Assembly: GCA_026625165.1 (NCBI GenBank)
Contig: CP112999.1
Span: forward strand, 1,639,288-1,703,287
From: Methanoregula sp.
Lineage (GTDB): Archaea; Halobacteriota; Methanomicrobia; Methanomicrobiales; Methanospirillaceae
Reading direction: 5' to 3'
DNA length: 64,000 nt
In this document: in pieces, positions 7,681-50,139 of the stretch
Position numbering within the stretch: position 1 is the stretch's first letter
Layout: every line of letters begins with the position of its first letter
Program-made: the position numbers and the translations under genes
Notes under the pieces: generated by a model
What the model saw: the letters and a program-made list of their open reading frames with translations, nothing else
The model's database searches: none
Told to the model about the DNA's origin: nothing

Positions 7681-7766
7681 ATAATCCCCGCCGCAGCACG
7701 GCAATAATAAAGACGGATTTTCATAGAGCAGGTAACAATACTCATAAGGCGGGAAATAAGATAAAA

Positions 7767-8609
7767 TTAGCGGACTTCAGAAGTGCACAGCTCCAAAAAA
7801 ATTCGATCGGATATGAGGATCGCGATCTTCTCCTGTGCGGTGAGCGGGTGGGAAAAGTTCAGGTCCTCGATCTCAAGAGTGAGCGGACCTGTATACCCGC
7901 AATCCCTTATCGCTCCGACAACCCGTTCCATGTCAGGATGGTAGTCAAGCGGGAGGTGAAGGTGCTTATTCTCAACCCTGCTAAGGTGTACATTTGCGAG
8001 ACGATCACCGCAAAGCTCAATGTAGGTGAACAGATCATCCGGCCGGCGGGACATCGCATGCGATACATCAAGAGTAAAGTAGAGCCATGGCTCGGCATCG
8101 AGCAACTCGCGCATTCGTTCCGGAGTGCAGAGCAGGGAGTTAACAAGCGGTTCCATGTTCTCCATGCTGATCATGATACCCGTCTTTCCTGCTTTTTCAC
8201 GGAGGATAGAGATATAACGGTCGAACCGGATAAAATCCGCATCAGATGGCGGGCGTTTTGCAGTTCGCCTGCCCGGGTGCACTGTCAGGACACCTGCACC
8301 CAGGCACTCCGCAAGCCGGATTGACCGTACGATGTAATCAATGGACACTGCTGCAACCGTTGGGTTAATTGAGCAGGGGTTCAGGTCCAGGATTGGGGCA
8401 TGCACCGTCACTGACGGGATTTCCGGATGGTTCTTTATGCATCCATTCATCTCATCAACCGGGCAGTTCCGGAGCCAGAAATCGGGGGTTTCGATCCAGA
8501 CTTCTATCCCGGTTAACCCTGATGCACTTACATACGAGAAAATCTCTTCGCACGCATACTCGTGGAAAAACATGCTGGAGACGGCGAAAACAGGCATGAT
8601 AATACTCAT
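7767..8609 (-). CDS. Sugar phosphate isomerase/epimerase (xylose isomerase-like TIM barrel)
   Basis: 280 aa with patterns GIEVW, VHAP, LTVHPG and ENME characteristic of the AP-endonuclease-2/xylose-isomerase-like fold. Confidence 0.65.
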   Translation of the reverse strand: MSIIMPVFAVSSMFFHEYACEEIFSYVSASGLTGIEVWIETPDFWLRNCPVDEMNGCIKNHPEIPSVTVHAPILDLNPCSINPTVAAVSIDYIVRSIRLAECLGAGVLTVHPGRRTAKRPPSDADFIRFDRYISILREKAGKTGIMISMENMEPLVNSLLCTPERMRELLDAEPWLYFTLDVSHAMSRRPDDLFTYIELCGDRLANVHLSRVENKHLHLPLDYHPDMERVVGAIRDCGYTGPLTLEIEDLNFSHPLTAQEKIAILISDRIFLELCTSEVR

Positions 8610-8639
8610 TAATATCTATTTTGCGCATAATAGTTGTTG

Positions 8640-9920: not shown

Positions 9921-10089
9921 GCAGAAAATTGAGAGATTAAAACAGATAATCGAAAAGATTGAAGACGGAAGCACAAGCCTTGACGAGAGCATCCGGCTCT
10001 ATGAACAGGGAGCGGCGCTGGTGAAGCAATGCGAGACGCTCCTTTCCGAAGCACAGGTAAAGATCACCACGCTCAGCCGGGACCCCTGA
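9904..10089 (+). CDS. xseB: Exodeoxyribonuclease VII small subunit
   Basis: 61 aa (YEQKIERLKQIIEKIEDGSTSLDESIRLYEQGAALVKQC), a typical XseB helix hairpin. It overlaps the xseA 3' end by 17 nt. Confidence 0.75.
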   Translation: MTETYEQKIERLKQIIEKIEDGSTSLDESIRLYEQGAALVKQCETLLSEAQVKITTLSRDP

Positions 10090-10501
10090 CGGTCATTGTC
10101 ACAACCATTGGCCGTCCTGCCTTCAGGTGAGTGATAATGGTTATGGGGAGCGTCGCTGCAACATGGTCCGAATGGATACCAATGGTCCTGCCGCAGACAA
10201 ACGAACTTTTTCTCCACACACAATCAGTCCTGTGATCGAGTACCATCGCGGCACTCCCTTCTGACTGCACCTCGATAATAAAACCTTCACAGGCGAGGGT
10301 TGTTGTAAGCTTTGCACCATCACGACAGAGGATATCCCTGAATTCTGTTGAGAGCCCAGCTGCTCCTTTATCCGCTCCCACACCGATGATACAGTGCCCG
10401 TTTTCCGATAGCTCCTCTTCCATGGTCACTTCAAATGTTGTCGGGTGGCTCGCTGATACGAGCGGGTGACCCCGGCAGCGGATGATTTCGGTTGCCTCCA
10501 T
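10073..10501 (-). CDS. DUF371-like conserved archaeal protein
   Basis: 142 aa whose N-terminus (IRCRGHPLVSASHPTTFEVT) is recalled as typical of DUF371. The assignment is by memory only. Confidence 0.5.
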   Translation of the reverse strand: MEATEIIRCRGHPLVSASHPTTFEVTMEEELSENGHCIIGVGADKGAAGLSTEFRDILCRDGAKLTTTLACEGFIIEVQSEGSAAMVLDHRTDCVWRKSSFVCGRTIGIHSDHVAATLPITIITHLKAGRPMVVTMTVRGPG

Positions 10502-10534
10502 GCTTTATTAGGTGAGGGTCGCTATTGATAATCA

Positions 10535-11110
10535 ATGTTTATTACCGGCTACTGCCCTGAATGCAAGGAGGAGTGCGAACACGAGGTTATTGCAGATGCC
10601 CGGGACAGGCTGGTCCGGTGCACGACCTGCAACCATGTCCAGCGGCTTAAACAGGAGAGAACTTCCGAACCCATAACCGTCAAGGCGATCGTTTCCCGCG
10701 AAGATAGTTCGATAGTATGTGGGATTGACCTTATGCCGGACGACGAATGCTCGATCGATGATCACCTTGTGGCGGAATGTGGCGATGACGCCTTTGGCGT
10801 CGAGATCACGGGAATCGAGACTGGTGAACGGCGGGTCCAGCGTGCCCGTGCAAAGGCGATAACATCCCTCTGGACAAGGGTGATCGAACAGGTGGTCGTC
10901 AAGATCTCGGTCCATGACGGCAGAAAAACCATCCCGTTGTATAAGGAATGTGAGGGGGAGGATACGTTTGTCGTCGGGGAAATCTATACGGTTCAGCAAA
11001 AACGTTTCAAGATAACCCAACTCAAACTGCGGGACGGCCCCCTTATGCGAAAAGAGGGCTGGAAAACTGTTGCGCACCGGATCAAACGGGTTTACGGATA
11101 CCGGTTATAG
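10535..11110 (+). CDS. Zinc-finger protein (N-terminal CPxC...CxxC ribbon; HVO_0476-like)
   Basis: 191 aa beginning MFITGYCPECKEECEHEVI...VRCTTCNHV. The family name is from memory. Confidence 0.5.
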   Translation: MFITGYCPECKEECEHEVIADARDRLVRCTTCNHVQRLKQERTSEPITVKAIVSREDSSIVCGIDLMPDDECSIDDHLVAECGDDAFGVEITGIETGERRVQRARAKAITSLWTRVIEQVVVKISVHDGRKTIPLYKECEGEDTFVVGEIYTVQQKRFKITQLKLRDGPLMRKEGWKTVAHRIKRVYGYRL

Positions 11111-17360: not shown

Positions 17361-18398
17361 TTAAATGAAGAACCGGAACGTCACCCATGCGATGATGAGC
17401 ATTATAGCAGAATATTTAAGTCCGGCAATAATCCTTCCTTCGCCCATTACCCCTGCCATGAACCCGGAACAGAACCCTTGGATCATCGCTCCATGGGAAA
17501 AGAGCCTCTTGTAGGTTGCAATATTAACGCCGCCCATAAACGATCCCCCGGCACCGGATTTGGCGGCTGCTTCACCGGCGGTTGCCATCGTTGTAAGGAA
17601 TGTACTGACAAGGATTGCGATAACAAACAGGAACACAGCAAATGAGACCAGGACGATGACTACATAGATCATCATGTTGTTGCGCCGTTCCTGGGCAAGG
17701 TTAACAACTTCAAAAAGGTCGTTTGCCGCAGCCCGCAATACCTCGCTCACATCGCCCCCTGCTTTGCTTGCCTTTGCTATAAGATCCACGCTGCGATCGG
17801 CAAGTTTGGTGCCAAGACCACTCCCGAAATGATGGAGCGCCTCGACAAAACCAACACCCCATGACATCTCGTTGTCCAGTTTCTTGATGTGCGGGGTTAG
17901 TGTCCCGTACTCGGCTCCTGCGACAAGGTGAACGGCATTGGGGAGCGTCATACCGGAATCGTTCATTCCGGCAAGATCACGGAAGAAGTTGGGTAACGAT
18001 TCCTCGAGTCTTTTTACACGGAAGTCCTCTTTCAAATCGAGCAATGCAAGGGGTACAATTGCAATCAGGATTGCAAACACAAGAAAATCATCAATGATAG
18101 TGGTGTCAAAGAGTACGGAAATCCCGTATGTCCGAACTTCTGTAATAAAACCCCCGAAAAAGACGATTATCGATAGAGGGATACACACAATCAGAATATT
18201 AACCGGTTTTTCAGTCAATACCTTGACCGGGTGTTTGAAAAACCGCCCGATACCCTCGCGGGTTTTGTGTTCCTGATCGATTTTTTTGGTGATCTCGTGG
18301 ACTTCTTCCTTGACCTTTACAAGATCCTTATCAGGGAGTTTTGTCCCTTTGAACTTCCCGCGGTTGAGCAGGTTATTAATAGTCTCCTTCATTCCCAT
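17361..18398 (-). CDS. Type II secretion system F (TadC/FlaJ-like) membrane platform protein, second half-gene
   Basis: 345 aa, polytopic, with one T2SSF-like cytoplasmic helical domain (GMTLPNAVHLVAG...VEALHHF). It starts 1 nt after the previous gene ends. Confidence 0.75.
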   Translation of the reverse strand: MGMKETINNLLNRGKFKGTKLPDKDLVKVKEEVHEITKKIDQEHKTREGIGRFFKHPVKVLTEKPVNILIVCIPLSIIVFFGGFITEVRTYGISVLFDTTIIDDFLVFAILIAIVPLALLDLKEDFRVKRLEESLPNFFRDLAGMNDSGMTLPNAVHLVAGAEYGTLTPHIKKLDNEMSWGVGFVEALHHFGSGLGTKLADRSVDLIAKASKAGGDVSEVLRAAANDLFEVVNLAQERRNNMMIYVVIVLVSFAVFLFVIAILVSTFLTTMATAGEAAAKSGAGGSFMGGVNIATYKRLFSHGAMIQGFCSGFMAGVMGEGRIIAGLKYSAIMLIIAWVTFRFFI

Positions 18399-18399
18399 G

Positions 18400-19329
18400 T
18401 TATGTCTCCGGGGTCATGGAGTCGATCATAATCACAAACATCATCGTGCCAAACGGGATCATCAGGTAAATGACTGCATATAGCATCAGCGGGGTCTTTT
18501 CTCCACCGAGCACCGACATGATCGACTGGAGGATGATCAAAAACAGCATGCCGGCAACAATTGCCGTCACATAGGATTCTGCAATCAGCCCAAGCGTGTC
18601 CAGAAACTGTTTCTGGGACTGGCGGTTCTCAAGTGCGTACTGTTTTGCCTTTGTCCGGAAATACTCGGTGAGGTTTCCGCCCGATGAGATGCTCGCCATT
18701 GCTCCCTGAAGGAACTCTTTCATCCGCGGGCTTGGGGTGCTTGCGGATACAAGACGCAGGGCGTCAATAAGATCCCTCCCGAATATATCAATCTCCCGGG
18801 CTATATACCGGGCTTCTACGGCACTCTCGCCATAGATAGGGCTGTCCCCAAGCAACCTGAAAACTTCTGCCGGGGTGATACCGGCTGTGGACATAGAGGT
18901 AATATAATTGATCGCATACGGGATGCTTGAATCTATGCTTCTTCTTCGGTTCCCTGCGGTAATATTCGGGTAGATCAGGAAAGCGATATAGGTAAAACCC
19001 CCGAAAAAGGCGAGCGAAAATATGACGGCAAAAAGGGTTCCAAGGATAAGGCTGTATGCTGAAAGTCCAAAAATAACATCTGGGACCTGTCCCTTGTACA
19101 TTTTGGCGATTAATGTTGGGAGGTCAAGCAGGTACGTCACTGAACCGAGCACCACCGCCATGCCGATTCCCACGATAAAGGAACTCACCAGTGCAGTGGA
19201 TAGGTAGACTTCGAACGGTGTTTTGGAACGGGAGGACAAGAGATCGTTTCTCAGGCTCGCGTACTGTTCCCGCTGTGCCTTCATCCTTTTGCCTAACAGG
19301 TTAAAGCAGAACCGCTCGTAACTATTCAT
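18400..19329 (-). CDS. Type II secretion system F (TadB/FlaJ-like) membrane platform protein, first half-gene
   Basis: 309 aa, polytopic, with a T2SSF-like domain (GITPAEVFRLLGDS...LIDALRLV). It overlaps the ATPase gene by 8 nt. Confidence 0.75.
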   Translation of the reverse strand: MNSYERFCFNLLGKRMKAQREQYASLRNDLLSSRSKTPFEVYLSTALVSSFIVGIGMAVVLGSVTYLLDLPTLIAKMYKGQVPDVIFGLSAYSLILGTLFAVIFSLAFFGGFTYIAFLIYPNITAGNRRRSIDSSIPYAINYITSMSTAGITPAEVFRLLGDSPIYGESAVEARYIAREIDIFGRDLIDALRLVSASTPSPRMKEFLQGAMASISSGGNLTEYFRTKAKQYALENRQSQKQFLDTLGLIAESYVTAIVAGMLFLIILQSIMSVLGGEKTPLMLYAVIYLMIPFGTMMFVIMIDSMTPET

Positions 19330-21730
19330 AGAGGTCTTTCCTCACCTTTTCAATGACCGCTTCCGGATCCCGGTGGTACGAGATCAGGATCTTTGCCACG
19401 TCCTTGTAGTGCCGGATTTTCTTGATCCGCATCCATTCCAGTACTTCCTGCCTCCGTTTGAGCTCCTCACGCATCCGGTTTTCGCTCCAGCCTTTCGCCT
19501 CCATGATCTCTTCGAGGAGGTAGGATTTTCCTGAATAGTTGATCTCATCAGTAGCCGACCGCCATTTGAAGACCTCGTTCGTGATCAGTTCGTTCGTCCT
19601 CGGATCGATATCAAGAATTTCGACGATCTGCTTATTCCTCCTTATCCGTTTGCCGCCGACCCGCGCCTGCACCTGGATACAGATGAAATCAAGGGCGGAC
19701 AACATGTTCCTCGGGACGTCCATCGGCGGGTTTTCGAAACGGTGCACAACACTTGAAACCGAGTCCGCATGCGTGGTAGAATAGGTAGTATGGCCGGTAC
19801 TCATCGCCTGGAAGAGTGTCTGGCATTCCTTGCCACGAACCTCACCCACGATGATGTATTCAGGACGCTGTCGCATTGCTGCTCGCAGGAGTTCGTACAT
19901 GTTGATCTCCCCCCGTCCCGCCGCATCGAATGAGTCCCGTGTGACGCTTGGTATCCAGTTGGGATGGGGGAGTTTGATTTCACGGGTATCTTCCAGCGAA
20001 ACGATTTTCGCCATCGGGGGGATGAAGAGTGCGATAGCATTGAGCGATGTGGTCTTCCCTGATGCGGTTCCACCCGCAAAGATGGCAGACTTCCCGTGTT
20101 CAACACAGAGCCATATATATGCAATCGACAGCGGGGCAAATGTATGCCATTCAATGAGATCGGTGGGCGTGATAGGTTCATCCTTGAACTTACGGATAGT
20201 GAACGTCGAGCCATGAGCGGTGACTTCCTGCCCCAAGGTCATCTGGATACGGGAACCGTCGCTCATTGTTGCATCAAGGATCGGTTCCGCAATAGAGATG
20301 TATTTTCCTGCCCGCTGTGCGAGTTTTGTAACAAATGAGTCCAGTTCCTCAGCATTATGGTATGAGAGGGTTGTTTTCATCGATTCGTAGCTGGCATGGT
20401 ATGCAAAGATCACGCTGTTCACACCGTCGCACGAAATATCTTCGATATATTTGTCGTGCATGATCGCATCGATCAGCCCGTCGCCGATAAAATCCTTGGA
20501 CATGTTATAGAAAATTTTTTCGCGCTGTATCGGGGATAGCTTGAGCCCGTAATCATGTATGATATCGTCGGTGACGGCACGAAGACGGTTCCGGGCGTCA
20601 TCTTTGGAAATATCCTTGGTATTGATATCAAGGGTTTCAAACAGACGTTCCTTGAGCTCTTTTAACAGGTCTTTTTCAGGTTCGGTAAGAAGCGGTTCGA
20701 GCACCATGTAGGTATATTCATGGGTGGCATGGTCATAGATAATCCGGACATACGCATAGGGTTCGTTAACAGGGTAGACCTCAATCTCCTCTAATCCGGG
20801 TTTCGGCTGGAACGCAAGATCAACCAGAGGACCATGAATCTTGGCATTATACTGCTCCTGGTCTGATTTAATGCCTTTAAAAAGGCTCGAGAGACCGAAC
20901 TTTTTAAAAGGAGTGATCCCTGATGGTTTTTCCGAGATGACATCCCCTTCAAAATCGATATCCTTAAAGCCCGAACTTGAGAATTCACGCTGCCAGATCT
21001 CGTTGATCTCGGGGGGGAGTGATCCGGTGCCTTTGCCTTCAAAGACATTGACACGCCCGTGGAGTTTGAGTTCTTCGATCTTGAACGTAGCTCCTTTGGG
21101 GAGGATCAGCCCTGACAGATCTGAAATCTGGTCAACCGATATGATCTTTTCATCGCTTTCAGTCTTTGGTGCGGTGCCCATGGCTCCGGCCACTTTTCCT
21201 GCCGGGGGAGTGGTATCGGGTTGAGCCCGGGGGGGCTGAAGGATTTTTTCAGGCTCATCAAAAATGTCGAATTCTACAGGAGGGGGAGAGGGGGAAGGCT
21301 TTTCACCGGGAACAGGCTCCGGTGAACCAATTTCTGCCATGATCTTTCCCATAGAATCGCGAACATCCTGTACACTCAATTCCTTGACGCTTCCGGTAGT
21401 ACTATTACCTTTAGTGCCATCCTTTGAAAGGGGAACAGTATCAGGAGCGGCCTCCGGTGACATGGGTTGTGAGGTACTCTGAAGGTGGGATTCTGTGCCA
21501 AGGGGGACTTTCTCCGGAGAGTGAGTTGTCGCTGACTGCAGGTCCTGTTGTCTTGACTCGTTTATCTTTTTGATAAGGTCGCTCAAGTCGCCGGTACCTG
21601 AACCAGCAGTCTCTTGTGCAAACCCGGCAGGTTTTTCCTGTTCAGCCTTCTTTTCTGGTTCCTTTGGCTTTTTTAAAGCGCCAAGGATCTTCATCAGCGA
21701 TGAGTCCTCTGGTTCTTCCTGATCTGTCAT
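19322..21730 (-). CDS. Type II/IV secretion system ATPase (archaeal FlaI/PilB/TadA-like) with a ~300-aa low-complexity N-terminal extension
   Basis: 802 aa. The FlaI-type N-domain begins near EIEVYPVNEPYAYVRIIY. Walker A (GGTASGKTT) is at 20048-20074, and the Asp/His boxes are EVRGKE and STGHTTYSTTHA. Residues 1-310 are rich in P/E/K/S/T. Confidence 0.85.
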   Translation of the reverse strand: MTDQEEPEDSSLMKILGALKKPKEPEKKAEQEKPAGFAQETAGSGTGDLSDLIKKINESRQQDLQSATTHSPEKVPLGTESHLQSTSQPMSPEAAPDTVPLSKDGTKGNSTTGSVKELSVQDVRDSMGKIMAEIGSPEPVPGEKPSPSPPPVEFDIFDEPEKILQPPRAQPDTTPPAGKVAGAMGTAPKTESDEKIISVDQISDLSGLILPKGATFKIEELKLHGRVNVFEGKGTGSLPPEINEIWQREFSSSGFKDIDFEGDVISEKPSGITPFKKFGLSSLFKGIKSDQEQYNAKIHGPLVDLAFQPKPGLEEIEVYPVNEPYAYVRIIYDHATHEYTYMVLEPLLTEPEKDLLKELKERLFETLDINTKDISKDDARNRLRAVTDDIIHDYGLKLSPIQREKIFYNMSKDFIGDGLIDAIMHDKYIEDISCDGVNSVIFAYHASYESMKTTLSYHNAEELDSFVTKLAQRAGKYISIAEPILDATMSDGSRIQMTLGQEVTAHGSTFTIRKFKDEPITPTDLIEWHTFAPLSIAYIWLCVEHGKSAIFAGGTASGKTTSLNAIALFIPPMAKIVSLEDTREIKLPHPNWIPSVTRDSFDAAGRGEINMYELLRAAMRQRPEYIIVGEVRGKECQTLFQAMSTGHTTYSTTHADSVSSVVHRFENPPMDVPRNMLSALDFICIQVQARVGGKRIRRNKQIVEILDIDPRTNELITNEVFKWRSATDEINYSGKSYLLEEIMEAKGWSENRMREELKRRQEVLEWMRIKKIRHYKDVAKILISYHRDPEAVIEKVRKDLYE

Positions 21731-21908
21731 ACTTTATTCCCCCCGTTAATCGCAACTGGTAATGAATAATCTGCCTAATTGATAAATCTCCATTTTAGTA
21801 TATCTATTCTCTGGAAGTAACCGGATTTTTGTTTTTTGCATATTCTTTTGATAAAAAAATATTCATCAAGCATCATGTCTTTTGGATGCATAACCTTAAA
21901 GCCAGAAT

Positions 21909-22610
21909 TCAGGCTACTCCCCCAAGATCCGACTGGAGATTTTTTATCGCCACCCGGACCAGCCCTAGCTGAGCGTCGTTATGGGTAAACACACATAAAA
22001 ACAGGTCACCACATGGCGCAATGATGATCTTGTTTGTGGCAGTCTCAAGGATAAGCTGGTCAAGCTCGCCCATATCCATCTCCCTGGTGATCTTGAACCC
22101 TGCACGCAGCAGGTCTTCTGCGAGTGCAGCAACATGCTCGAAATCTGCTTCTCCCAGCGACTGGACTGAAAAACCCTCAAAAAACGCTGATATGGCGATA
22201 ACCCCGGGAAGGGTCAGCATCTTTTTGAGTTTTGTTTCGTCAAGTAGATGCGGGAGGTGCGCCACCGGTTCTTTTTTTTGTATTCCAAGCATCAGTCCTT
22301 CGTTGTCGCATACTTCAACCGCTTTCTGGAATTCGTCTTCACTATACAAGCGGAGCTTGAATGTCTGATGATATCCTGCCTCATCGGATTGGACGGAACC
22401 CATGTGGTCGAGGGCTGATTTTCCCTTAAACGAACCACTCATATCCTTAAAATATGCAGCAATCAGGGTACCGTGATTGGTGAGCAGGAAGCCCTGCCCC
22501 AGCTGCGTATCGATCTCAACTGCTCCCCTGAATCCCATCAGCTGCTGGTTTGCTTCCTCACCCTGCGGGTCTGTAATAACCCCGCCATCGGTCCCTGCTG
22601 GAAGTTTCAT
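21909..22610 (-). CDS. Fusion protein: PATAN/DUF4388-like N-terminal module plus Roadblock/LC7-like C-terminal domain
   Basis: 233 aa. The N-terminus (GFRGAVEIDTQLGQGFLLTNHGTLIAAYF...GKSALDHM) parallels the two paralogues at 23187 and 26635. The C-terminus (LPGVIAISAFFEGFSV...IIIAPCGDLFLCVFT...LGLVRV) has a Roadblock pattern. Confidence 0.55.
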   Translation of the reverse strand: MKLPAGTDGGVITDPQGEEANQQLMGFRGAVEIDTQLGQGFLLTNHGTLIAAYFKDMSGSFKGKSALDHMGSVQSDEAGYHQTFKLRLYSEDEFQKAVEVCDNEGLMLGIQKKEPVAHLPHLLDETKLKKMLTLPGVIAISAFFEGFSVQSLGEADFEHVAALAEDLLRAGFKITREMDMGELDQLILETATNKIIIAPCGDLFLCVFTHNDAQLGLVRVAIKNLQSDLGGVA

Positions 22611-22612
22611 GA

Positions 22613-22960
22613 TTATAGGGCAGCGATAATCCGTTCCTTATTTTTCTTTAATTCGTACCGGATCCTGCCAATATTGGAGGAGCTGTCAGCAACTATCGCA
22701 ATCAGTTCATCTGCGGAGAGTGGTGAAAGGATGATTGGACCTTTTTCCAGCTCAACGAGCATCTGGGATAGTTCTCCTTTCCCAAGCGTTGTGCCCATTG
22801 CTTCCGATGTGCCAAGACCCGTCGATGCCATGGCGCCAAGTGCTTCTATATCGACCTTTCCCGAGACCGCACTCTCAATAACAAACCCATCCCTTCCAAC
22901 AACCACTGCTGCTGATACTCCTTCAACTTTCAAAAATTCCTCGAGTAACGGCTTTAACAT
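22613..22960 (-). CDS. Roadblock/LC7 (MglB-like) domain protein
   Basis: 115 aa with VEGVSAAVVVGRDGFVIES...GPIILSPLSADELIAIVADSSSNIGRIRYEL, the canonical Roadblock pattern. A 2-nt gap separates it from the next gene. Confidence 0.8.
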   Translation of the reverse strand: MLKPLLEEFLKVEGVSAAVVVGRDGFVIESAVSGKVDIEALGAMASTGLGTSEAMGTTLGKGELSQMLVELEKGPIILSPLSADELIAIVADSSSNIGRIRYELKKNKERIIAAL

Positions 22961-23186
22961 CGTATCACCACTGATAATTGAATTGTTCTCGTCTTGTTCT
23001 ATTAATACTTTAGGCTAAACGATGAAATGCAGGATTTATTTTAAAAAAAGAAGGAAAATCTGCACGGTTTTCCTGGTTTCAATAAATTGGCTGCTAATTA
23101 GGTCTCTTTAAAAAAAGATTTTTTCCGGCATTTTTTAAAAAAAACTCATAAGATTTAAACCCAAAAACGATGACAATAGAGTGACT

Positions 23187-23822
23187 ATGCAGCTCCCACG
23201 CGGAAAATTCCGCTCAATAAAAAAAGAAGTCCCTTTGGGAGAGATCCTTAATGAGATGGCAACATCAGGTTTTTCCGGCATCTGTTCGTTTTCATCAAAC
23301 ACGGTCAATGGCACTATGGTATTCAAAGGAGGGGCAATAATCCTTGCAAAAGTCCAGGAGCAGTATGGTGACCCTGCGATCGATGAGGCTCGGTCGATTG
23401 TGGATCAGGTGATTGATGCAGTGCTTTCCGATCTCGATGGTACACAGATGCAGCTGGCACTTGATTTCAATAAACATGCCTATGTGCGGAAGGGAGGGTG
23501 GCAGGGAGCCATTCAAAAACCTGAACCGGAAAGCAGGACGGTGCCAAAAGAAAAGAATTTCATGAAGACCCTGCCCGTAGCACCGCCCGGTGCACCAGTG
23601 CCTGCAAAACCTGGTAAAAATCTGACAACAGGTAATTCATCGGATGCCCAAAAACAAATCCGGGAGGAACAGGGCACGTCGCAAGAACCTCCGCTCACAT
23701 CAGCGGAGAAGGAGTTCGAAACCTTCGACTCCATGGACATCGAGGACGTTACACAAAAAATCCGAAGGGATTCTAAAGTTATTCTTAAACAGCTCGAGCT
23801 CGACCACCTGATGGAAAAATAA
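23187..23822 (+). CDS. PATAN/DUF4388-like domain protein with a disordered Pro/charged C-terminus
   Basis: The N-terminus (LGEILNEMATSGFSGICSFSSNTVNGTMVFKGGAIILAKVQ..YGDPAIDE) fits the DUF4388-type pattern. The C-terminal ~100 aa are low complexity. Confidence 0.5.
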   Translation: MQLPRGKFRSIKKEVPLGEILNEMATSGFSGICSFSSNTVNGTMVFKGGAIILAKVQEQYGDPAIDEARSIVDQVIDAVLSDLDGTQMQLALDFNKHAYVRKGGWQGAIQKPEPESRTVPKEKNFMKTLPVAPPGAPVPAKPGKNLTTGNSSDAQKQIREEQGTSQEPPLTSAEKEFETFDSMDIEDVTQKIRRDSKVILKQLELDHLMEK

Positions 23823-24012
23823 AACCTTGTGAGGGATTTTTATCGAATTCAACATTCTCGAGATTACCGATATCATCACCATAATCATTGTCTGTATCAT
23901 CATCGCGCTTACCATACTCATTGCATGGTTCCAGATAAAAAAATTCAAAAAACAGCGTGAACAGGTTATTGAAGCGCCTCCTGCAGACGAGATCTTTAAA
24001 CTTGTATCAAAA

Positions 24013-24435
24013 GTGAAATATCCCGCAAGTGATACGGCAAAATTCAGTCAGGCACCGGAAAATCCGGTAAAACCCGTGCTCCAGGAACCTGAAAAAAACC
24101 GGAAAAAAATCGAACTTTTAAAAAACCGCGTTAATATCACAGACAGCCTGCGGGCACTTGCTGAAAAATATTCGATTCTTGAAATTACTCTTGCTTCTGA
24201 TGACGGACTTGTCATTGCATCTTCCACTGACCGCGATGTTCAGGCAGATGCCGCACGATACAGCCAAATCGTCAAACACCAGGAAGCAACCGGTGAGTCC
24301 GGGGTCAGCCTGTTTGAACTCTATCACAAGAAGGCGCATATAATCGGGATCATCCGAGAGGAACAGGATCTGCCTCAAACCTGGAAAAAAGAAATACGGG
24401 AAGATACAAAAGGTATTTTACAGTGGTGGTTATAA
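24013..24435 (+). CDS. Roadblock/LC7-like protein; the true start is possibly upstream, adding a transmembrane anchor
   Basis: The core ILEITLASDDGLVIASSTDRDVQADAARYSQI resembles Roadblock. The track start is a GTG. Sixty upstream in-frame codons are open and encode a hydrophobic helix (see findings). Confidence 0.45.
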   Translation: MKYPASDTAKFSQAPENPVKPVLQEPEKNRKKIELLKNRVNITDSLRALAEKYSILEITLASDDGLVIASSTDRDVQADAARYSQIVKHQEATGESGVSLFELYHKKAHIIGIIREEQDLPQTWKKEIREDTKGILQWWL

Positions 24436-24509
24436 CTGAATTATGAAGATAAATTGGATAATCTTATATAAATCTGGCATAAAATCACACATAATCATAC
24501 AGGTGCTGA

Positions 24510-25295
24510 ATGGTCAAGGTATACACAATTGCATCCGGTAAAGGAGGTACTGGGAAGACAACTGTTTCAGTCAATCTTGGAACGATACTCTCGCAACTCG
24601 GGAAAGAGACGTTCCTGATGGACGCGGACATCGGGATGGCAAATGTCGGCCTGATCCTTGGCCTCCAGGATGCACCGGTTACCCTCCATGAGATACTTGC
24701 CGGCAAGGGCACGTTGAACGAAGCGATTTATGAAGGGCCTGCAGGACTGAAAGTTATCCCGAGCGGGCTCTCATTGCAGGGGTTCCAGCAGGCAGATCCC
24801 GAACGGATCCGGGATGTGATGGCAGATATTATCAAACGGTGTGAGTTTTTAATCATCGATGCTCCTGCCGGCATCAGTAAGGATGGTGTGGTCCCCCTTG
24901 CTGTTGCTGATGAAGTCATCCTTGTCGTGAACCCAGAACTCTCATCAATTGTCGACGCCCTCAAGACCAAGATTCTCACCGAAGTCGTCGGGGGGCAGGT
25001 GCTCGGGTCCATCATCAACCGGGTTGACCAGGACAAGATCGATGTCATCACCAAGAAGATGGAGAAAGTCCTTGGCGTAAAAGTGATCGGGATTATTCCC
25101 GAAGACTCCAATGTGCGCAGGGCGTCAGCGGCAAAGACACCCATCGTCCTCAAATTTCCTACCTCCCCTGCGAGCCTCGCATTCAAGCGGATCGCTTCGG
25201 AACTAATCGGGGTCGCATACAAGGAAGAAAAAAGCGCCATTCCGAGGGAAGGGTTTATCGACCGGTTTTCAAAAGCCCTGTTTAAGAGAAAATAG
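24510..25295 (+). CDS. minD: MinD/ParA-family P-loop ATPase
   Basis: 261 aa with a deviant Walker A (ASGKGGTGKTT), switch regions (DADIGMAN, IIDAPAG) and a Shine-Dalgarno-like aggtg 5 nt upstream. Confidence 0.85.
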   Translation: MVKVYTIASGKGGTGKTTVSVNLGTILSQLGKETFLMDADIGMANVGLILGLQDAPVTLHEILAGKGTLNEAIYEGPAGLKVIPSGLSLQGFQQADPERIRDVMADIIKRCEFLIIDAPAGISKDGVVPLAVADEVILVVNPELSSIVDALKTKILTEVVGGQVLGSIINRVDQDKIDVITKKMEKVLGVKVIGIIPEDSNVRRASAAKTPIVLKFPTSPASLAFKRIASELIGVAYKEEKSAIPREGFIDRFSKALFKRK

Positions 25296-25413
25296 ATACC
25301 AGTATTATTTTTTATTGATTTTCACGGATAGAGGTTCTTTTTATTATCTGACAATATTGTAATTTCCAATCTATTTTGAAAAAATAAGGGGCTCTAAAAA
25401 TTTTTAATAGAGA

Positions 25414-26541
25414 TTATTGGGGATTTTCGGGTTTATTGGTGATGGTAAAAACACAGTGTTCATCGCCTTTGGACCGGCACTTTATCTCCCGCGCCTGAAC
25501 TTTTATACCGAACGAACCTTCGATGATGCCCGCAAGAAGCCCGGCTGTACAGAAGCAGACATTTTTGCCGATACTGCCAAACGCTTCGGACTCAACCGTA
25601 TGCGAAAGCGTCATCGTTTTGGTTTTTGCCGCTTCATTCCATTCCGTTTTGATGATACTGAACCACCCCATCTGGGAGTAGAAGGCAAATGCCATGTCGG
25701 AGAGGATATTGGGTTTATCGATTCCCATCTTCTTGTAGTGCCCAACGTTTTCCTTACCCATATCCATATATGCACGGTAGTTGACCCCACCCGCCGGCAT
25801 CTCACCCATCGTCTTTTTTAACGAGTTCATCATGGATGTGAAGATGAAGCGTGGCATCATGACGACAGGGTCATCAATCAGCTTGATTTTGCCTTCAAGG
25901 GGTTTGTGCTCGATATATTCTGTTATGGCGGAGTCGCCTTTCACGATTGCCTGCGCCTTGAACTTCCAGCTGGATTCGACCTGATCGGCAACAAACTCAC
26001 ACGCATCGTCGCCTTGTGCGTGGCATTTGGTCTCAAGACAGAACCAGTTTTTGCCGGTAACTGCACTCAGGACCCCCTCAATCCAGCCCCGGTGAAGGCC
26101 ACATACCGGCATGTTCCAGTCTTTCATGACCTGTGATTCAAAGGTCTGTTTTGTGCGTAGTTTGATCCGTTTGTCACTTTGCTCAACAAGTTCAAACGGG
26201 GCACCCCATCCCTGCTGGTGCTGGAGCTTGAACACGAGTATCAGAAATTCAGCCGGTTTGAGATCCATGCCAAGTTTTTTTAGCAGATTGTCGAGTCCGA
26301 CAGATCCCATGCCAACAGACCTGAAGAGCTTTCGGACTGCCTGAACTGCAAGTTTTCTGCCGAGGTTGGCTTCATACATTTCATAGATTGCCTTAACAAG
26401 ATAATTCGGGTTGCTTGCTGTTTTAACACCAAAAACAGAATATGAACCGGTGACAGGATTCAACTCGATGTATGGTGTGATGTCTTTTTCACCTTTAAGA
26501 AGGGCTTCAAAATCCTCACGCCCGATCTTCTTTTTTTCCAT
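25414..26541 (-). CDS. Double V4R-domain protein
   Basis: 375 aa with two V4R-type Cys signatures: PVCGLHRGWIEGVL...ETKCHAQGDDACEFV and CFCTAGLLAGIIEG...EIKCRSKGDEHCVFTI. Confidence 0.7.
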   Translation of the reverse strand: MEKKKIGREDFEALLKGEKDITPYIELNPVTGSYSVFGVKTASNPNYLVKAIYEMYEANLGRKLAVQAVRKLFRSVGMGSVGLDNLLKKLGMDLKPAEFLILVFKLQHQQGWGAPFELVEQSDKRIKLRTKQTFESQVMKDWNMPVCGLHRGWIEGVLSAVTGKNWFCLETKCHAQGDDACEFVADQVESSWKFKAQAIVKGDSAITEYIEHKPLEGKIKLIDDPVVMMPRFIFTSMMNSLKKTMGEMPAGGVNYRAYMDMGKENVGHYKKMGIDKPNILSDMAFAFYSQMGWFSIIKTEWNEAAKTKTMTLSHTVESEAFGSIGKNVCFCTAGLLAGIIEGSFGIKVQAREIKCRSKGDEHCVFTITNKPENPQ

Positions 26542-26634
26542 GGTGCATAGCTCTGCAGTCCAGTTACTAAAGGATTTCGTCTTGAAATTTTAAAAAAAAT
26601 AAGGGAGAAGAATTAGAATCGGAAGATTAAAAAA

Positions 26635-27246
26635 TCACATCGTAAGCGGGACGGATGCATGGGATGCGTCAAACTCAATCCGGTATTTTGTGACCATCTG
26701 GGCTTTGTCCTGTACGATGCAGTCATAGATCCCAAATGCGATCCTGAACCTTACGGTACCATCACTTGTCGTGATATCGCTTCCCAGAATCCTACCGTCC
26801 TTTCTTATCGAGACGCGGATCCCATTCTGCGGGACACCTTCTTTCTTCACCGTGATCGAGAGTACCCCGATACCACCTGCGGGCCCCCCGATTTCAGGTA
26901 TATTGTACGAAATGCTCTTTTTCAACCGGTTTTTATCGAAGATTCTGCTCCCCATGACAAGTTCTTCGACAACATCCGGCCTGTTTTCTGTAAGTACGAA
27001 TTTTTCCTTTGGCTGTACCATCAGCACTGCCTTGTCCCCGAACAGCACCCCTTTCTCATCGGTGTAGATCGCTCCCTCAGCTTCGCCTGCAATGAACGCG
27101 AGGTACATGTCCCGTCCATTACCCTTTGCAACTGCGATGCCATTGATGCTGCGTGCTGATGCATACTGCATCAATTCCAGCAGGTCAAATGTCCCGAGAT
27201 ATTGCGATCCTTTCAGGATGTTTTCCAGCAATTCCTGAATTTTCAT
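26635..27246 (-). CDS. PATAN/DUF4388-like N-terminal module plus a C-terminal beta-sandwich (carboxypeptidase-regulatory-like) domain
   Basis: The N-terminus (GTFDLLELMQYASARSINGIAVAKGNGRDMYLAFIAGEAEGAIY..GVLFGDKAV) fits the DUF4388-type pattern. The C-terminus (GVLSITVKKEGVPQNGIRVSIRKDGRILGSDITTSDGTVRFRI) looks like a beta-sandwich. Confidence 0.5.
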   Translation of the reverse strand: MKIQELLENILKGSQYLGTFDLLELMQYASARSINGIAVAKGNGRDMYLAFIAGEAEGAIYTDEKGVLFGDKAVLMVQPKEKFVLTENRPDVVEELVMGSRIFDKNRLKKSISYNIPEIGGPAGGIGVLSITVKKEGVPQNGIRVSIRKDGRILGSDITTSDGTVRFRIAFGIYDCIVQDKAQMVTKYRIEFDASHASVPLTM

Positions 27247-27463
27247 GGGAAGCCTTCACACTTTACCTGAACCGAACCGGGGAAAATAACCGGTTTGTGT
27301 TTACGGAATATACGACACTTGCATCATATTAATTTGTGGATTCCTTTTTTTATTATACCAGCAAAAACCCATAATTTACGACAATGCGTTGGATTAGCAG
27401 AAAAAATCATGGAATGCATCGCCAACCATAAGTGTTACCGGAAGAAAATGATTGAACACAGGT

Positions 27464-28654
27464 ATGATTGTCATCGAGATGCTGGTATCTTCGCTCGCGG
27501 TTCTTGCCACTTTAGGTTATGCTTCGTATCTCGATATCAGGGATCGACGCGTGCCTTTCGTGTATTGGATGCCGATGCTGTGCGTAGGTATCCCCTGCAC
27601 GGGATACCTGCTCTGGGAAAAGACTGGTAACGGGAGCCTTGTCGCAGGGTACCTCTCGCTCATCGCGACGTTCCTGTATGCCGATTACCTTGACAACCGG
27701 GGAAGGACGGACTCGATTGGTCTGGTATGGTATTACCGGAAATCCGCGGTCTTTATATATCTCACGATCGTCCTCGTCCTGCCGGTCCTCGCGTGGTTTG
27801 TCCTCGCCGGCAATGCAAATGTCCAGATTCTCCCATGGTACGCAATGTTTGCCGGGATCATCTCCTATGTCACATACCTGGTTTACCAACAGGGCCGGGG
27901 TGGGGAGGGGAATCCGAAACGGAAGCGGGCTGCACCGAAGCCTGAGACTGGCACTGCTGAAGCGATCCGCCGCTGGTATTTCGTTCTGCTTATCATGATC
28001 TTTATGATAACCTCCGGTCTTTTATTCTACGGCGCCTGGGGGATGCCGGCGCTTTCTATCCTCTTCCTCTCAGTCTTCTGCGGGGTATTCTATATTTTCG
28101 GAAGGTTGCACTTCTTTGGGGGGGCTGATGCGTGGGCCCTCATATTCATCTCGTTCTGTATCCCGGTGTTTCCGGTAACCCCGCTCCTCGGAGTCCCGCC
28201 GCTTGGTTTCCTCGCGTTCTCCGTCCTGATCAATGCCCTCATCCTCAACCTTGTCGCCCCGATCGGGATCTTCCTGATCAATATCATCCATGGAAATCGG
28301 GCCCCGCTGATGTACCTGTTCTTCGGATTTCCGGTTAAGGGTGACGAGATCCAGAAATCGTGGGGCTTCGTGATGGAGGATTTCAAGGATAGAAATGGCG
28401 AGGTGGAACGGAAATTCATCGGGTTCTTCGATGCGATACGCAGGATGTATACCGGGGAGGGGAGGGTCTATACCAAGGATCTTCGCGAACACCCCGAAGA
28501 GTACGCTGCACAGCTGGCGATGTACCGTAAAGCGGGTCTGGTCTGGATTTCGTATGCAGTGCCGTTCATCATCCCGATCACTGCGGGTCTGGTCAGTGCG
28601 ATTGTATTCGGCGATTTCCTCTTTACGATTATGAGAATTGTAAGTGGTGCGTAA
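27464..28654 (+). CDS. A24-family prepilin/preflagellin peptidase (FlaK/PibD/EppA-like), enlarged
   Basis: Polytopic membrane protein. The first catalytic Asp context is [11 protein letters not shown] and the second is [10 protein letters not shown] (GxGD-type). At 396 aa it has a charged loop and a ~100-aa soluble insertion. Confidence 0.75.
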
Positions 28655-29030: not shown

Positions 29031-29179
29031 TTTTCCACTCGATTATCGGCCGATGCAATTCAGTCGCCTTTTTTTTTCAACAATTTTTCCCGTGTATTAC
29101 TGGCCGGCTGCAATTTTAAATGATACAATTATATAGTTATTTTTTCCAGATATCTCAACATAAATTGAGGAGAGATGGC

Positions 29180-29458
29180 ATGGTTTTTGTCCCTGATCTG
29201 GTATCCATGATCAATACGATTCTCTGCGTGATCATAGTTATCCTCGGTATTCTTGTCTACACACGTAATGGTGAGATGAGTGCCCTGCTCATTGGTATTG
29301 CATTCGGACTTTTTGGTATCTCCCATATCTATACCATCCTTGGCTTTGGAATCAGTTGGGAAGGCGCCCTGATCACAGCCCGCACATGCGGTTATATCCT
29401 TGTTATTGCGGCGCTATACCTGTTCCTGACCAGTGGGAATAAAAAAGACTATGGCTGA
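29180..29458 (+). CDS. Hypothetical small membrane protein (3 predicted transmembrane helices)
   Basis: 92 aa from the ATG at 29180, with a gaggag Shine-Dalgarno-like sequence 8 nt upstream. It is hydrophobic throughout, with no family recognition. Confidence 0.4.
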   Translation: MVFVPDLVSMINTILCVIIVILGILVYTRNGEMSALLIGIAFGLFGISHIYTILGFGISWEGALITARTCGYILVIAALYLFLTSGNKKDYG

Positions 29459-30313: not shown

Positions 30314-32260
30314 ATGAGAATGGTACCGGATACAAGCGTCCTTATCGACGGGCGCATCACCTCGATGATAAAAACCGGGGATTATAATGGTTCAACAATA
30401 ATCATTCCTGAAGCTGTTGTCGCGGAACTCGAAGCGCAGGCAAATCAGGGACGGGAGATCGGATTTTCAGGATTGAACGAGCTCCAGTCGCTCTGCAGGC
30501 TGGCAGAGGAAAAAGTAATCGAGCTCAAATTCTCCGGAGAACGCCCTTCCTTGGAACAGGTGAAACTGGCAAGCGGCGGAGAGATCGATGCCATGATCCG
30601 CCAGATCGCGATCGAGAATGCAGCACAATTCATTACAAGCGACAGTGTGCAGGCGGAAGTAGCACGGGCAAAAGGGCTGAACGTCACGTACCTCAAACCG
30701 CAGATTACGGATTTTGTCCCGCTGGGCATCGACCAGTTCTTTGACGAACACACGATCGCCATATACCTCAAAGAACGCGTCTGTCCTGTCGCAAAGAAGG
30801 GGACGATCAGCGCGATGAAACTCGTCCAGATACGAGATCAGCCGACCACTGAATACGAACTCCGGGCACTGGCGCAGGAGATCCTTGAGCGGGCAAAGCG
30901 GAACCCCGATGGTTTCATTGAGGTGGAAAAGCGCGGAATCACCGTCGTTCAGATCGGGTCAATGCGGATCGCGATCGCCCGCCGCCCCTTTTCTGACGGC
31001 ATGGAGATCACCGCAGTACGCCCTATCGTGGATGTAACCCTCAACGATTACTCAAAGGCAGATGTGATCAAAAAACGACTTTCCGGCGAGAAACGCGGGA
31101 TGATCATTGCAGGTGCACCAGGGTCGGGAAAGACGACACTTGCGCAGAGTGTTGCGACTTACCTGTGCGACAGCGGGTTTGTGGTTAAGACAATGGAAGC
31201 CCCCAGGGAACTTCAGGTGCCTGACCAGATTACGCAGTACACCATGCTTGACGGGAGCATGCAGAACACCGCCGATGTACTCATGCTCATCCGCCCCGAT
31301 TTTGTTATCTTTGACGAGCTGCGCAAAAACGAGGACTTCAGGACGTTTGCTGACATGCGTCTTGCTGGTATGGGGATGGTCGGCGTTGTCCATGCCACAG
31401 ATGTCAGGGATGCCCTCCAGAGGTTCTCGGATCGCGTTGACTATGGTGTCCTCTCGCAGATTATCAATACCATCATCTTTGTCAAAGAGGGTGTTATCAC
31501 CAAGATCTATGATGTCGGGTTTACCGTCAAGGTGCCGGAGGGGATGACAAACGAGATGTATATCCGCCCCGTCACGACCGTAACTGAGTACGAGTCCAAG
31601 GAGCTTGCCTATGACGTATTCCGGTACGATGGCGAGACCATCATCATACCGGTAACCCATGCGGCTGAACTGAAAGATGCGCCCGCAAAAGCGTTACTGC
31701 GGACAAGCCCCCCCGCGCCGTTGGACCCGGTTGTCCCACAGGTCCGGACCCCTGCAACGGAACCAGTACCACGGGAGGAGAGCGAGAAACGAACTGGATG
31801 GAAGCTCTCTGAAAAGGAGATACAGCGTGAGATCGGGAGATACACTGACGGTGAAGTAGATGTGCAGATGATCAGTGACACCAAAGCGGTCGTGTATATC
31901 GATGACAAGGATGTGCCAGCCGCAATCGGGAAGGGCGGCAAGAACATATCTGCCATTGTCAACAAGATTGGTATAGGAATCGATATCAAACCGAGGAATG
32001 AACTGGAAAAGCAGAAAAAAGAGGAGGAGGAGTTCAACCTTGGCGGCGGTGTCAGGATCCATATCGATAAAAAACAGTTAACGATTGTCGCCCCTGAGCA
32101 TAATGGCAAGATCGTAGATGTCTTTGCGGGTAAGGAATACCTCTTCACTGCTACGGTGAATGAAAACGGTGAGATCCACCTTGCCAAGAACTCAAGTATA
32201 GCCCAGGAGATGATCCGGCGTCATTCTTCAGGAGAAGTCATCAAACTTCGGCCGGTATGA
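30314..32260 (+). CDS. PIN domain / PilT-like ATPase / KH domain protein (COG1855-type)
   Basis: 648 aa with an N-terminal PIN domain (MVPDTSVLIDGRI), Walker A (AGAPGSGKTTLAQ) and a C-terminal KH domain (IGKGGKNISAIVNKIG). Confidence 0.8.
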   Translation: MRMVPDTSVLIDGRITSMIKTGDYNGSTIIIPEAVVAELEAQANQGREIGFSGLNELQSLCRLAEEKVIELKFSGERPSLEQVKLASGGEIDAMIRQIAIENAAQFITSDSVQAEVARAKGLNVTYLKPQITDFVPLGIDQFFDEHTIAIYLKERVCPVAKKGTISAMKLVQIRDQPTTEYELRALAQEILERAKRNPDGFIEVEKRGITVVQIGSMRIAIARRPFSDGMEITAVRPIVDVTLNDYSKADVIKKRLSGEKRGMIIAGAPGSGKTTLAQSVATYLCDSGFVVKTMEAPRELQVPDQITQYTMLDGSMQNTADVLMLIRPDFVIFDELRKNEDFRTFADMRLAGMGMVGVVHATDVRDALQRFSDRVDYGVLSQIINTIIFVKEGVITKIYDVGFTVKVPEGMTNEMYIRPVTTVTEYESKELAYDVFRYDGETIIIPVTHAAELKDAPAKALLRTSPPAPLDPVVPQVRTPATEPVPREESEKRTGWKLSEKEIQREIGRYTDGEVDVQMISDTKAVVYIDDKDVPAAIGKGGKNISAIVNKIGIGIDIKPRNELEKQKKEEEEFNLGGGVRIHIDKKQLTIVAPEHNGKIVDVFAGKEYLFTATVNENGEIHLAKNSSIAQEMIRRHSSGEVIKLRPV

Positions 32261-49971: not shown

Positions 49972-50139
49972 TAAAATTTTTTTGAACCCTCAGCTGGTCT
50001 GCCTGATTAATCGCGGTAAGACAAAGAAACGGGTGTTTTTCCCTTCCCTTTTAATAATATCTCCCTGCACAGCAACCTGTTCTCTATCCCCTGCTGTTTT
50101 ATCCCATATCCTTTTGAGCAGAAAGACAAATCTGTGATC

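Follow-up and report, generated by a model that had tools for sequence, protein, structure and literature searches.

A candidate Methanomicrobiales-specific accessory set of Roadblock, PATAN-like and MinD proteins encoded with a PilB3-type pilus motor in Methanoregula

In euryarchaea, clade-2 loci for type IV pili (T4P) encode an assembly ATPase and TadC, often from two tadC genes, and no pilins; the pilins are encoded in trans, and MinD is expected to act as a regulator (Makarova, Koonin and Albers 2016, PMC4858521). Several clade-2 ATPases are listed for Methanoregula in the tables of that study, and a one-sentence remark states that Roadblock proteins from arCOG02603 frequently have their genes in archaeal T4P loci (PMC4858521). 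Its text makes no mention of PATAN or V4R, and the available parts of its supplements hold no entry for arCOG02603, Roadblock or V4R. The stretch described here, hereafter the window, comprises 64,000 nucleotides of contig CP112999.1 from Methanoregula sp. (positions 1,639,288–1,703,287, forward strand) and contains, at positions 17361–28654, a predicted pilus motor operon together with genes for Roadblock/LC7, PATAN-like, MinD-family and V4R-type proteins and for a prepilin peptidase (Table 1).

In Synechocystis, PatA-type regulators bind the cytoplasmic domain of PilC, and their PATAN domain, which localises to the membrane, also binds PilB1 and is enough to reverse phototaxis; a general role of PATAN with T4P machines was left open by the authors (10.1101/2021.06.11.447907). 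MglB homologues are often encoded near PATAN proteins, and MinD4 and MinD2 of Haloferax position motility machinery (archaella and chemosensory arrays). On balance, the window locus probably couples a clade-2 T4P assembly motor to a Methanomicrobiales-specific accessory complex of Roadblock, PATAN-like and MinD proteins, which would decide where or when pili form. The motor type, the pilin-free loci, and the association of Roadblock and MinD with archaeal T4P loci have been known since 2016. What appears to be new, from gene order and homology, is the conserved content: a five-gene core, the coupling of a PATAN-like protein of 203 amino acids (aa) to the ATPase, and a trio of a PATAN-like protein, a membrane-anchored protein and MinD. 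The accessory set, with a PATAN-like–Roadblock fusion among three PATAN-like paralogues and no GTPase, is an undescribed variant of known regulatory themes, and occurs only in Methanomicrobiales, an order difficult to manipulate.

The core is a minus-strand operon in which the gene for a 115-aa Roadblock protein is followed by a 2-nt gap, a 233-aa fusion gene, a 178-nt gap, the 802-aa ATPase gene, an 8-nt overlap, a 309-aa TadC gene, a 1-nt gap and a 345-aa TadC gene. Related loci were collected by one contig scan and two protein searches, which were filled by Methanoregulaceae, and more distant loci by a representative search and then a profile search; the counts of loci with a gene set take only loci with room for the genes in question. 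The five genes are colinear and on one strand in 66/66 Methanoregulaceae loci, the genes for the 213-aa protein (211 aa in Table 1) and MinD are present in 70/70, and the whole set is colinear in 80 Methanoregulaceae species among the matches listed. Colinearity within this family is by itself a weak argument, because the genes for HisI, SUI1 and CobQ are equally syntenic. The core also survives rearrangement and a change of flank, because it is kept in four distant loci. Three of these, from Methanofollis (L084), Methanogenium (L085) and a JGI contig (L088), have the order LeuRS – PINA-like – HisI – A24, then a four-gene hydrogenase, then, on one strand, Roadblock – fusion – 203-aa orthologue – ATPase – TadC – TadC; in Methanofollis, this co-directional series also takes in a remnant of the 211-aa protein and MinD, placed after the fusion and before the 203-aa orthologue. 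The fourth, a Logan contig (L092), encodes a Roadblock protein 83% identical to that of the window, a Roadblock-only version of the fusion (55% identical to the C-domain, without the PATAN-like domain) and ATPase – TadC – TadC, and its downstream flank is different, with a PAS histidine kinase and a polysaccharide synthase.

Taken together, gene order supports a link of the Roadblock/PATAN-like genes to the pilus ATPase/TadC genes beyond chance neighbourhood. To this extent the candidate switch or positioning system proposed by the initial annotation stands, although V4R is no conserved member of it and the Roadblock and MinD association was already on record. The synteny on which that proposal depended holds for the core in the Methanoregulaceae and the four distant loci, but not in Methanoculleus, Methanolacinia and one metagenome-assembled genome (MAG), where the 10 kb around the Roadblock pair and the MinD trio contain no pilus genes. 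MinD or the secretion ATPase may be the NTPase partner of the Roadblock proteins, as the same annotation suggested.

The ATPase matches PilB3_C above the curated cut-off (30 bits, cut-off 27); PilB3_N scores 19 bits (cut-off 27) in the window protein, and precomputed PilB3_N annotations on the same protein and its orthologues carry no sub-threshold mark. Its catalytic core begins at about residue 310, with Walker A (GGTASGKT) at residue 553, and the nearest solved relative is Archaeoglobus fulgidus GspE (2OAP, 2.9e-129 over residues 312–798), ahead of FlaI. In a conservation profile, residues 1–190 are poorly conserved and seemingly disordered, with three short conserved islands (residues ~8–20, 45–58 and 121–135), whereas residues ~195–260 (~65 aa), which precede the PilB3_N region, are well conserved and have no family match. 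By their NCBIfam match positions, the two T2SSF proteins are the N and C halves of one ArlJ/TadC-type protein; the N-terminal half is 62–85% identical across 72 loci, and the C-terminal half, always encoded by the final gene of the operon, is 58–79% identical to its orthologues. Domains and gene arrangement thus match the euryarchaeal clade-2 (PilB3/PilC3-type) T4P assembly motor, and the label "Tad-like", given initially, is wrong. Nor is "pilin-less" a peculiarity: the absence of pilins is ordinary, because PilB3-type loci of Haloferax and Halobacterium also lack them, with pilins in trans (PMC4858521). In Haloferax, pili are lost when pilB3 is deleted.

That no ORF (open reading frame) carries a class III signal peptide, first noted for the locus, was borne out in a FlaFind-like scan of all 64 kb and in another for the DUF1628 motif. 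The ORF at 29120–29458 (+) was flagged by a loose class III pattern and rejected as a pilin, being a three-transmembrane-helix membrane protein; this protein (92–112 aa) is conserved only in the closest relatives. The ORF at 50134–50598 was likewise rejected, having multiple transmembrane helices, an NfeD-like N-terminus and no pilin features.

The 115-aa Roadblock protein (Robl_LC7, 60 bits; cut-off 23) is one of the cluster's most conserved members, and the fusion protein always accompanies it. Identity is 79–100% in Methanoregulaceae, and 73–83% in distant loci in which the ATPase is 59–67% identical. The 233-aa fusion has a PATAN-like N-domain and a Roadblock C-domain (33.9 bits). In its AlphaFold2 model (mean predicted local distance difference test score, pLDDT, 85.4; two domains), the C-domain is confirmed, at the level of the prediction, to carry the alpha-beta-beta-alpha-beta-beta-beta-alpha Roadblock fold; the best Foldseek matches were Asgard Roadblock, LAMTOR and MglB (template-modelling score 0.75–0.83), and MglC was also matched. 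With the whole model as query, Foldseek returned Roadblock matches only and none for the N-domain. Among the NCBIfam matches is a weak one to MglB. The fusion family is narrow, with 130 representatives in 1.84 billion proteins; all informative source names are Methanomicrobiales except one MAG labelled Syntrophales (61% identity), which is probably mis-binned.

As stated for the locus by the initial annotation, no Ras-like GTPase was found, and a survey of P-loop ORFs extends this to the full 64 kb: these encode the pilus ATPase, MinD, the PINA-like ATPase, CobQ, a probable GTPase of the SRP (signal recognition particle) type and a further ORF at 61269–62225. No Ras-like GTPase was called in the ~90 related loci inspected either. 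Elsewhere in the window, a second, unrelated Roadblock gene (48014–48388, minus strand; Robl_LC7 2e-10) shares 4 nt with the first of two genes for REC-MetOD2 response regulators (47370–48017 and 46607–47383), so that positions 46607–48388 are a further Roadblock signalling cassette, linked to two-component output.

The N-domains of the fusion, the 213-aa protein and the 203-aa protein were compared by hhalign. The fusion N-domain aligns with that of the 213-aa protein at 95.4% (E 2e-8), and the 203-aa N-domain with that of the fusion at 87.6% (E 3.5e-6), the latter link being seen only after Methanomicrobiaceae orthologues and a broad fusion alignment were added, whereas shallow Methanoregulaceae-only alignments failed; direct similarity between the 203-aa and 213-aa N-domains was not detected by hhalign. 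Because the comparisons chain the 213-aa protein to the fusion and the fusion to the 203-aa protein, the three N-domains are one domain family, PATAN-like but not demonstrably PATAN. Sub-threshold DUF4388 matches recur in 7/25 orthologues of the 211-aa protein, with no other Pfam family recurring, and are found in 4/79 members of the fusion N-domain family, level with DUF2226; in the per-orthologue scan, the 203-aa family has no DUF4388 match, even sub-threshold.

The 203-aa protein has nothing significant in Pfam, NCBIfam, PDB-sequence profiles or per-orthologue scans, and its beta-sandwich tail has weak CarboxypepD_reg matches in 7/30 orthologues. In Methanomicrobiaceae its orthologues (31–35% identical) are encoded immediately upstream of the pilus ATPase, with an 8-nt overlap of the ATPase start in L084 and L088 and a position 10 nt upstream of it in L085; this arrangement, with overlap in two of three loci, suggests that the protein is translationally coupled to the ATPase there. 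The 211-aa protein, for which ATG 23187 is probably the start of the 213-aa call, has an N-domain of ~105 aa, which a variable, Pro-rich linker joins to a conserved helix at the C-terminus (FDSMD..KIR.D.K..LKQL.LDHL). Its orthologues stand upstream in the MinD trio of Methanoculleus and Methanolacinia. In Methanofollis, only the part with the C-terminal helix is left, directly upstream of minD, which hints that this helix may be the MinD-relevant part, because it alone persists there.

In the trio PATAN-like protein / membrane-anchored protein / MinD, which is conserved as a second unit, the middle member probably begins upstream of the 140-aa ORF as called. The 60 in-frame codons before this ORF (from 23833) encode a transmembrane helix, are free of indels in six species and bear substitutions mostly at third codon positions, and orthologues with ATG starts carry the same helix. 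Because a Shine–Dalgarno (SD)-like GGAGG/GGGGGA motif followed, 5–6 nt on, by ATC is conserved in nine species, and no ATG, GTG or TTG occurs within the stretch, ATC at 23842 (an Ile codon) is the candidate start of a protein of ~197 aa. Read-through of the upstream stop codon and a frameshift from GTG 23829 were both rejected, since the two genes are in different frames in the window and SD plus ATC explains all nine species. The label "Roadblock-like", first given to the 140-aa ORF, is unproven: there is no Roadblock profile match and nothing significant in Pfam, NCBIfam, PDB-sequence profiles or per-orthologue scans (hhalign, 6.7%). A single-sequence AlphaFold2 model reached a pLDDT of 55, and its Foldseek matches were enriched in Roadblock-fold proteins (Gtr1/2, EGOC, MglB); the ORF is not called Roadblock because the model is poor and the matches are non-significant, and its alpha/beta domain may have a Roadblock fold.

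MinD has a deviant Walker A motif (GKGGTGKT) at residue 10 and, in all orthologues inspected, a conserved C-terminal amphipathic motif, GFIDRFSKALFKRK, which resembles the membrane-targeting sequence of bacterial MinD. Its nearest structure is A. fulgidus MinD-1 (1HYQ, 1.4e-73), and identity in Methanofollis, Methanoculleus and Methanolacinia is 58–64%.

The genes of the trio are divergent from the operon on the plus strand; convergent on them are minus-strand genes for the double V4R protein and the 203-aa protein, and divergent again is the plus-strand A24 peptidase gene. The two halves of the V4R protein are an internal duplication (hhalign, 98.3%); the protein is similar to the C-terminus of MsvR and is a candidate small-molecule or redox sensor. 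The V4R, 203-aa and A24 genes stand together in 53/55 Methanoregulaceae loci, and V4R at this position is confined to that family. In the A24 peptidase, both catalytic Asp motifs are present (D28 in LDIRDRRVP, D226 in FGGADAW), and a conservative hydropathy scan gives at least 7 transmembrane helices; it passes Arc_PepC_II, and the Peptidase_A24 profile is sub-threshold (23.7 bits, cut-off 26.5). Its enlargement, already remarked upon, amounts to ~135 aa relative to the 264–265-aa orthologues in Methanofollis and Methanogenium. The insertion lies between the two Asp motifs, contains a degenerate second copy of the segment with the first helix and Asp (residues 62–85, resembling residues 6–35) and a basic loop, and is missing in orthologues outside Methanoregulaceae. 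The peptidase gene always adjoins hisI and not the pilus operon. The PINA-like gene of the same neighbourhood (30314–32260, plus strand) encodes a PIN–ATPase–KH protein (PRK13764, 831 bits), a PINA-like Holliday-junction ATPase related to T2SSE; it is a second gene with the secretion-ATPase fold and not part of the pilus system, and the order LeuRS – PINA-like – HisI – A24 is kept across Methanomicrobiales.

When the ORF map was recomputed, strands, gaps and overlaps of all eleven ORFs agreed with the initial description. Labels were judged against Pfam and NCBIfam curated cut-offs, and remote homology by hhalign profile–profile comparison. Eight labels pass (T2SSF twice, T2SSE/PilB3-type ATPase, Roadblock twice, archaeal MinD, double V4R and A24/Arc_PepC_II), whereas PATAN-like is reached only sub-threshold.

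Table 1. Coordinates of the genes of the window locus and of gene sets in related loci (positions of L-numbered loci refer to the locus itself)
Feature	Position	Strand	Basis
TadC/PilC-type platform protein, C-terminal half, 345 aa, one T2SSF, ~4 transmembrane helices	17361–18398	-	Pfam T2SSF 1e-17; NCBIfam, ArlJ positions 280–541
TadC/PilC-type platform protein, N-terminal half, 309 aa, one T2SSF	18400–19329	-	Pfam T2SSF 8e-16; NCBIfam, ArlJ positions 32–249
PilB3-type (FlaI/VirB11-family) pilus assembly ATPase, 802 aa	19322–21730	-	T2SSE 2e-30 (1.8e-30); PilB3_C 6e-7
Fusion of PATAN-like N-domain (~1–105) and Roadblock/LC7 C-domain (~125–229), 233 aa	21909–22610	-	Robl_LC7 3e-8, residues 149–207
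Stand-alone Roadblock/LC7 protein, 115 aa	22613–22960	-	Robl_LC7 2e-16
PATAN-like protein, 211 aa from ATG 23187 (213 aa as called from 23181)	23187–23822	+	DUF4388 19.9 bits, sub-threshold
Membrane-anchored protein with cytoplasmic alpha/beta domain, probably ~197 aa	23842–24435 (called 24013–24435, 140 aa)	+	Conserved upstream transmembrane helix; candidate ATC start
Archaeal MinD-family ATPase, 261 aa	24510–25295	+	TIGR01969, 314 bits (cut-off 202)
Tandem double V4R-type protein, 375 aa	25414–26541	-	V4R 1e-28, 99.4 bits (cut-off 31), two stretches
PATAN-like N-domain with beta-sandwich tail, 203 aa	26635–27246	-	hhalign to fusion N-domain
Enlarged A24 prepilin/preflagellin-type peptidase, 396–400 aa	27452–28654	+	Arc_PepC_II 4.5e-22, 78.9 bits (cut-off 29.9)
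Hydrogenase genes, L084	6458–9640		
Hydrogenase genes, L085	6496–9628		
Hydrogenase genes, L088	6504–9654		
Hydrogenase genes, L090	6542–9638		
Hydrogenase genes, L091	6521–9630		
Hydrogenase genes, L093	6514–9630		
Paralogous cassette, L086 (Roadblock not called)	9506–10723		
Paralogous cassette, L087	9054–10828		
Paralogous cassette, L089 (tandem duplicate)	7653–10867		

If the locus does couple a pilus motor to an accessory complex, the hexameric FlaI/VirB11-family ATPase and the TadC/PilC membrane platform, split into two genes, would be the motor, and the pilins would come from genes in another part of the genome, with the nearby A24 peptidase as their probable processing enzyme. The core scaffold would be a Roadblock heterodimer in which the 115-aa protein pairs with the C-domain of the fusion, and the PATAN-like domains of the fusion, the 203-aa and the 211-aa proteins may attach this scaffold to the ATPase, to the cytoplasmic face of TadC or to both, as in cyanobacteria with PilB1 and PilC. 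This assignment of roles is suggested because PATAN binds PilB1 and PilC, MglB genes neighbour PATAN genes, and T4P ATPases are sorted by MglA/MglB in Myxococcus. The second unit could be the source of a spatial or temporal cue at the membrane, through the 211-aa protein with its C-terminal helix, the anchored alpha/beta protein, and MinD with its membrane-targeting helix; in Methanoregulaceae only, a small-molecule or redox signal may also enter through the double V4R protein. Such a complex would set the place or time of pilus assembly.

Several observations weigh against so specific a reading. The best DUF4388 score in the window (19.9 bits) lies below the gathering cut-off of 25 bits, and V4R is absent at this position from L084, L085, L088, L090, L091 and L093 (all six Methanomicrobiaceae-type loci) and from L092. 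The housekeeping flanks (LeuRS, the PINA-like ATPase, HisI, SUI1, CobQ) are syntenic across the order as well, and part of the conservation is plain genome stability. In Methanoculleus and Methanolacinia (L090, L091) and in a MAG (L093), the order is HycI – 213-aa orthologue – anchored-protein orthologue – MinD – hydrogenase – Roadblock – fusion, and no pilus ATPase or TadC gene is found within 10 kb of the Roadblock pair and the trio. A paralogous cassette in other loci (L086, L087, L089) encodes a small HAMP membrane protein, a Roadblock protein (117–132 aa) and a fusion-like protein (232–288 aa) without pilus genes, and the Roadblock/PATAN-like pair is therefore a portable signalling unit and no dedicated pilus part. 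Most of these points are those expected if the Roadblock, PATAN-like and MinD proteins were a general cell-polarity or cargo-positioning module (for the archaellum, chemosensory arrays, division or another cargo) that lies beside the pilus operon by chance in a stable region, LeuRS to CobQ being syntenic throughout Methanomicrobiales; in the sole organism studied, the cargo of the archaeal MinD paralogues is archaella and chemosensory arrays and not pili. This most serious rival is nevertheless considered unlikely, since the core outlasts both the Methanofollis rearrangement, with MinD inside the co-directional operon, and the new downstream flank of L092, one PATAN-like paralogue appears translationally coupled to the ATPase, and cyanobacterial PATAN domains bind the pilus motor. 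A filament as the product is also assumed, because no pilin was found in 64 kb, and the lack of pilins would be explained if the ATPase and TadC instead served secretion, DNA transfer or a bindosome-like assembly; for at least one archaeal subclade, 4D, pilins have never been found in the loci (Makarova et al.). With a conserved A24 peptidase nearby, a PilB3-type C-terminal domain in the ATPase, and PilB3-type loci of Haloferax and Halobacterium that lack pilins yet are required for pili, a product other than a pilus is highly improbable.

The Roadblock proteins could also be read as classical MglB-type subunits, acting as GTPase-activating proteins or guanine-nucleotide exchange factors (GAP/GEF) for a Ras-like GTPase encoded elsewhere, in a polarity switch like that of MglA/MglB. 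Their fold is near MglB and LAMTOR, MglA/MglB sort PilB and PilT in Myxococcus, and an orphan MglB can arise via separation from mglA; on the other side stand the GTPase-free window and related loci, and 328 orphan MglB homologues are known, so that orphan status is common. This makes a hidden Ras-like partner quite unlikely. A further alternative starts from the neighbours in sister genera, where the Roadblock gene begins 0–27 nt after the large-subunit gene of a hydrogenase, on the same strand, in six Methanomicrobiaceae-type loci, and where in three of them the hydrogenase maturation protease and the MinD trio lie upstream on that strand. The hydrogenase is a four-gene, Mvh/Vhu-like [NiFe] type with a small 2x[4Fe-4S] ferredoxin, a 187-aa protein, a VhuG-like and a VhuA-like subunit. 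The 187-aa protein has a weak match to ATC_hydrolase, a family reported to be related to V4R (PMC5847659), and any V4R-like reading of it comes from this match, because the protein is not significantly similar to the V4R protein. That the Roadblock pair, MinD and a V4R-superfamily protein serve this cytoplasmic hydrogenase in assembly, localisation or H2/redox signalling, with the pilus link secondary, is very unlikely: the 80 Methanoregulaceae species and L092 combine the Roadblock pair with pilus genes and have no hydrogenase in the locus. An extension of the preferred motor-coupling reading, bolder and quite doubtful as a whole, would unite these strands in a GTPase-free archaeal polarity or timing switch, in which Roadblock heterodimers and PATAN-like adaptors link membrane-bound MinD to the T4P motor, a V4R-superfamily sensor (in sister lineages including the Mvh-like hydrogenase) provides the input, and adhesion pili are placed or triggered by H2 or redox state, for example for syntrophic attachment.

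The locus bears on how archaea choose the place and time of T4P assembly (MinD4 and MinD2, the only positioning ATPases examined to date, act on archaella) and on the function of the hundreds of orphan Roadblock/MglB proteins of prokaryotes. It offers a compact, conserved and testable set that is physically tied to one pilus motor and includes no small GTPase. Docking of the PATAN-like domains on the ATPase or TadC, if it occurs, would extend the cyanobacterial link between PATAN and the pilus motor to archaea and give Roadblock proteins a non-GTPase partner. In addition, the hydrogenase genes of the sister genera hint at H2-dependent control of adhesion in syntrophic methanogens.

Among described systems, PilB3/PilC3 of Haloferax volcanii is like the window motor in having a FlaI/VirB11-family ATPase with a PilB3-type C-terminus, TadC/PilC directly after it, and pilins in trans. 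It differs in that the window ATPase has an N-terminal extension of ~190 aa and the conserved region of ~65 aa, and in that the operon includes Roadblock and PATAN-like genes, which the published accounts consulted do not describe for the haloarchaeal locus. Epd pili and EppA of Methanococcus maripaludis, which belong to clade 1, share two TadC genes, MinD and an enlarged A24 peptidase in or near the locus. However, clade-1 loci carry several pilin or minor-pilin genes and the window none, and the window peptidase is enlarged by a Methanoregulaceae-specific insertion into a 264-aa enzyme of the Arc_PepC_II type.

On the regulatory side, PixE and PixG of Synechocystis (PATAN-REC) likewise connect a PATAN-type domain with T4P, and for them binding to PilB1 and PilC and control over where pili are active have been shown; the window domains, in contrast, are sub-threshold PATAN-like, are fused to Roadblock, a beta-sandwich or a linker and helix instead of a receiver, and stand in an archaeal locus without a chemotaxis-type kinase. 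MglA/MglB of Myxococcus xanthus (with MglC and RomR) resemble the window set in that Roadblock-fold proteins are linked to the polar sorting of T4P ATPases and in having two Roadblock paralogues, whereas the window lacks an MglA-like GTPase and one of its Roadblock domains is fused to a PATAN-like domain. With MinD4 and MinD2 of Haloferax and with bacterial FlhG/FleN, the window MinD shares the deviant Walker A, the C-terminal amphipathic helix and an encoding beside motility or surface-structure genes; the cargo of the Haloferax proteins is archaella and chemosensory arrays, whereas the window MinD is encoded in a fixed trio with a PATAN-like and an anchored protein.

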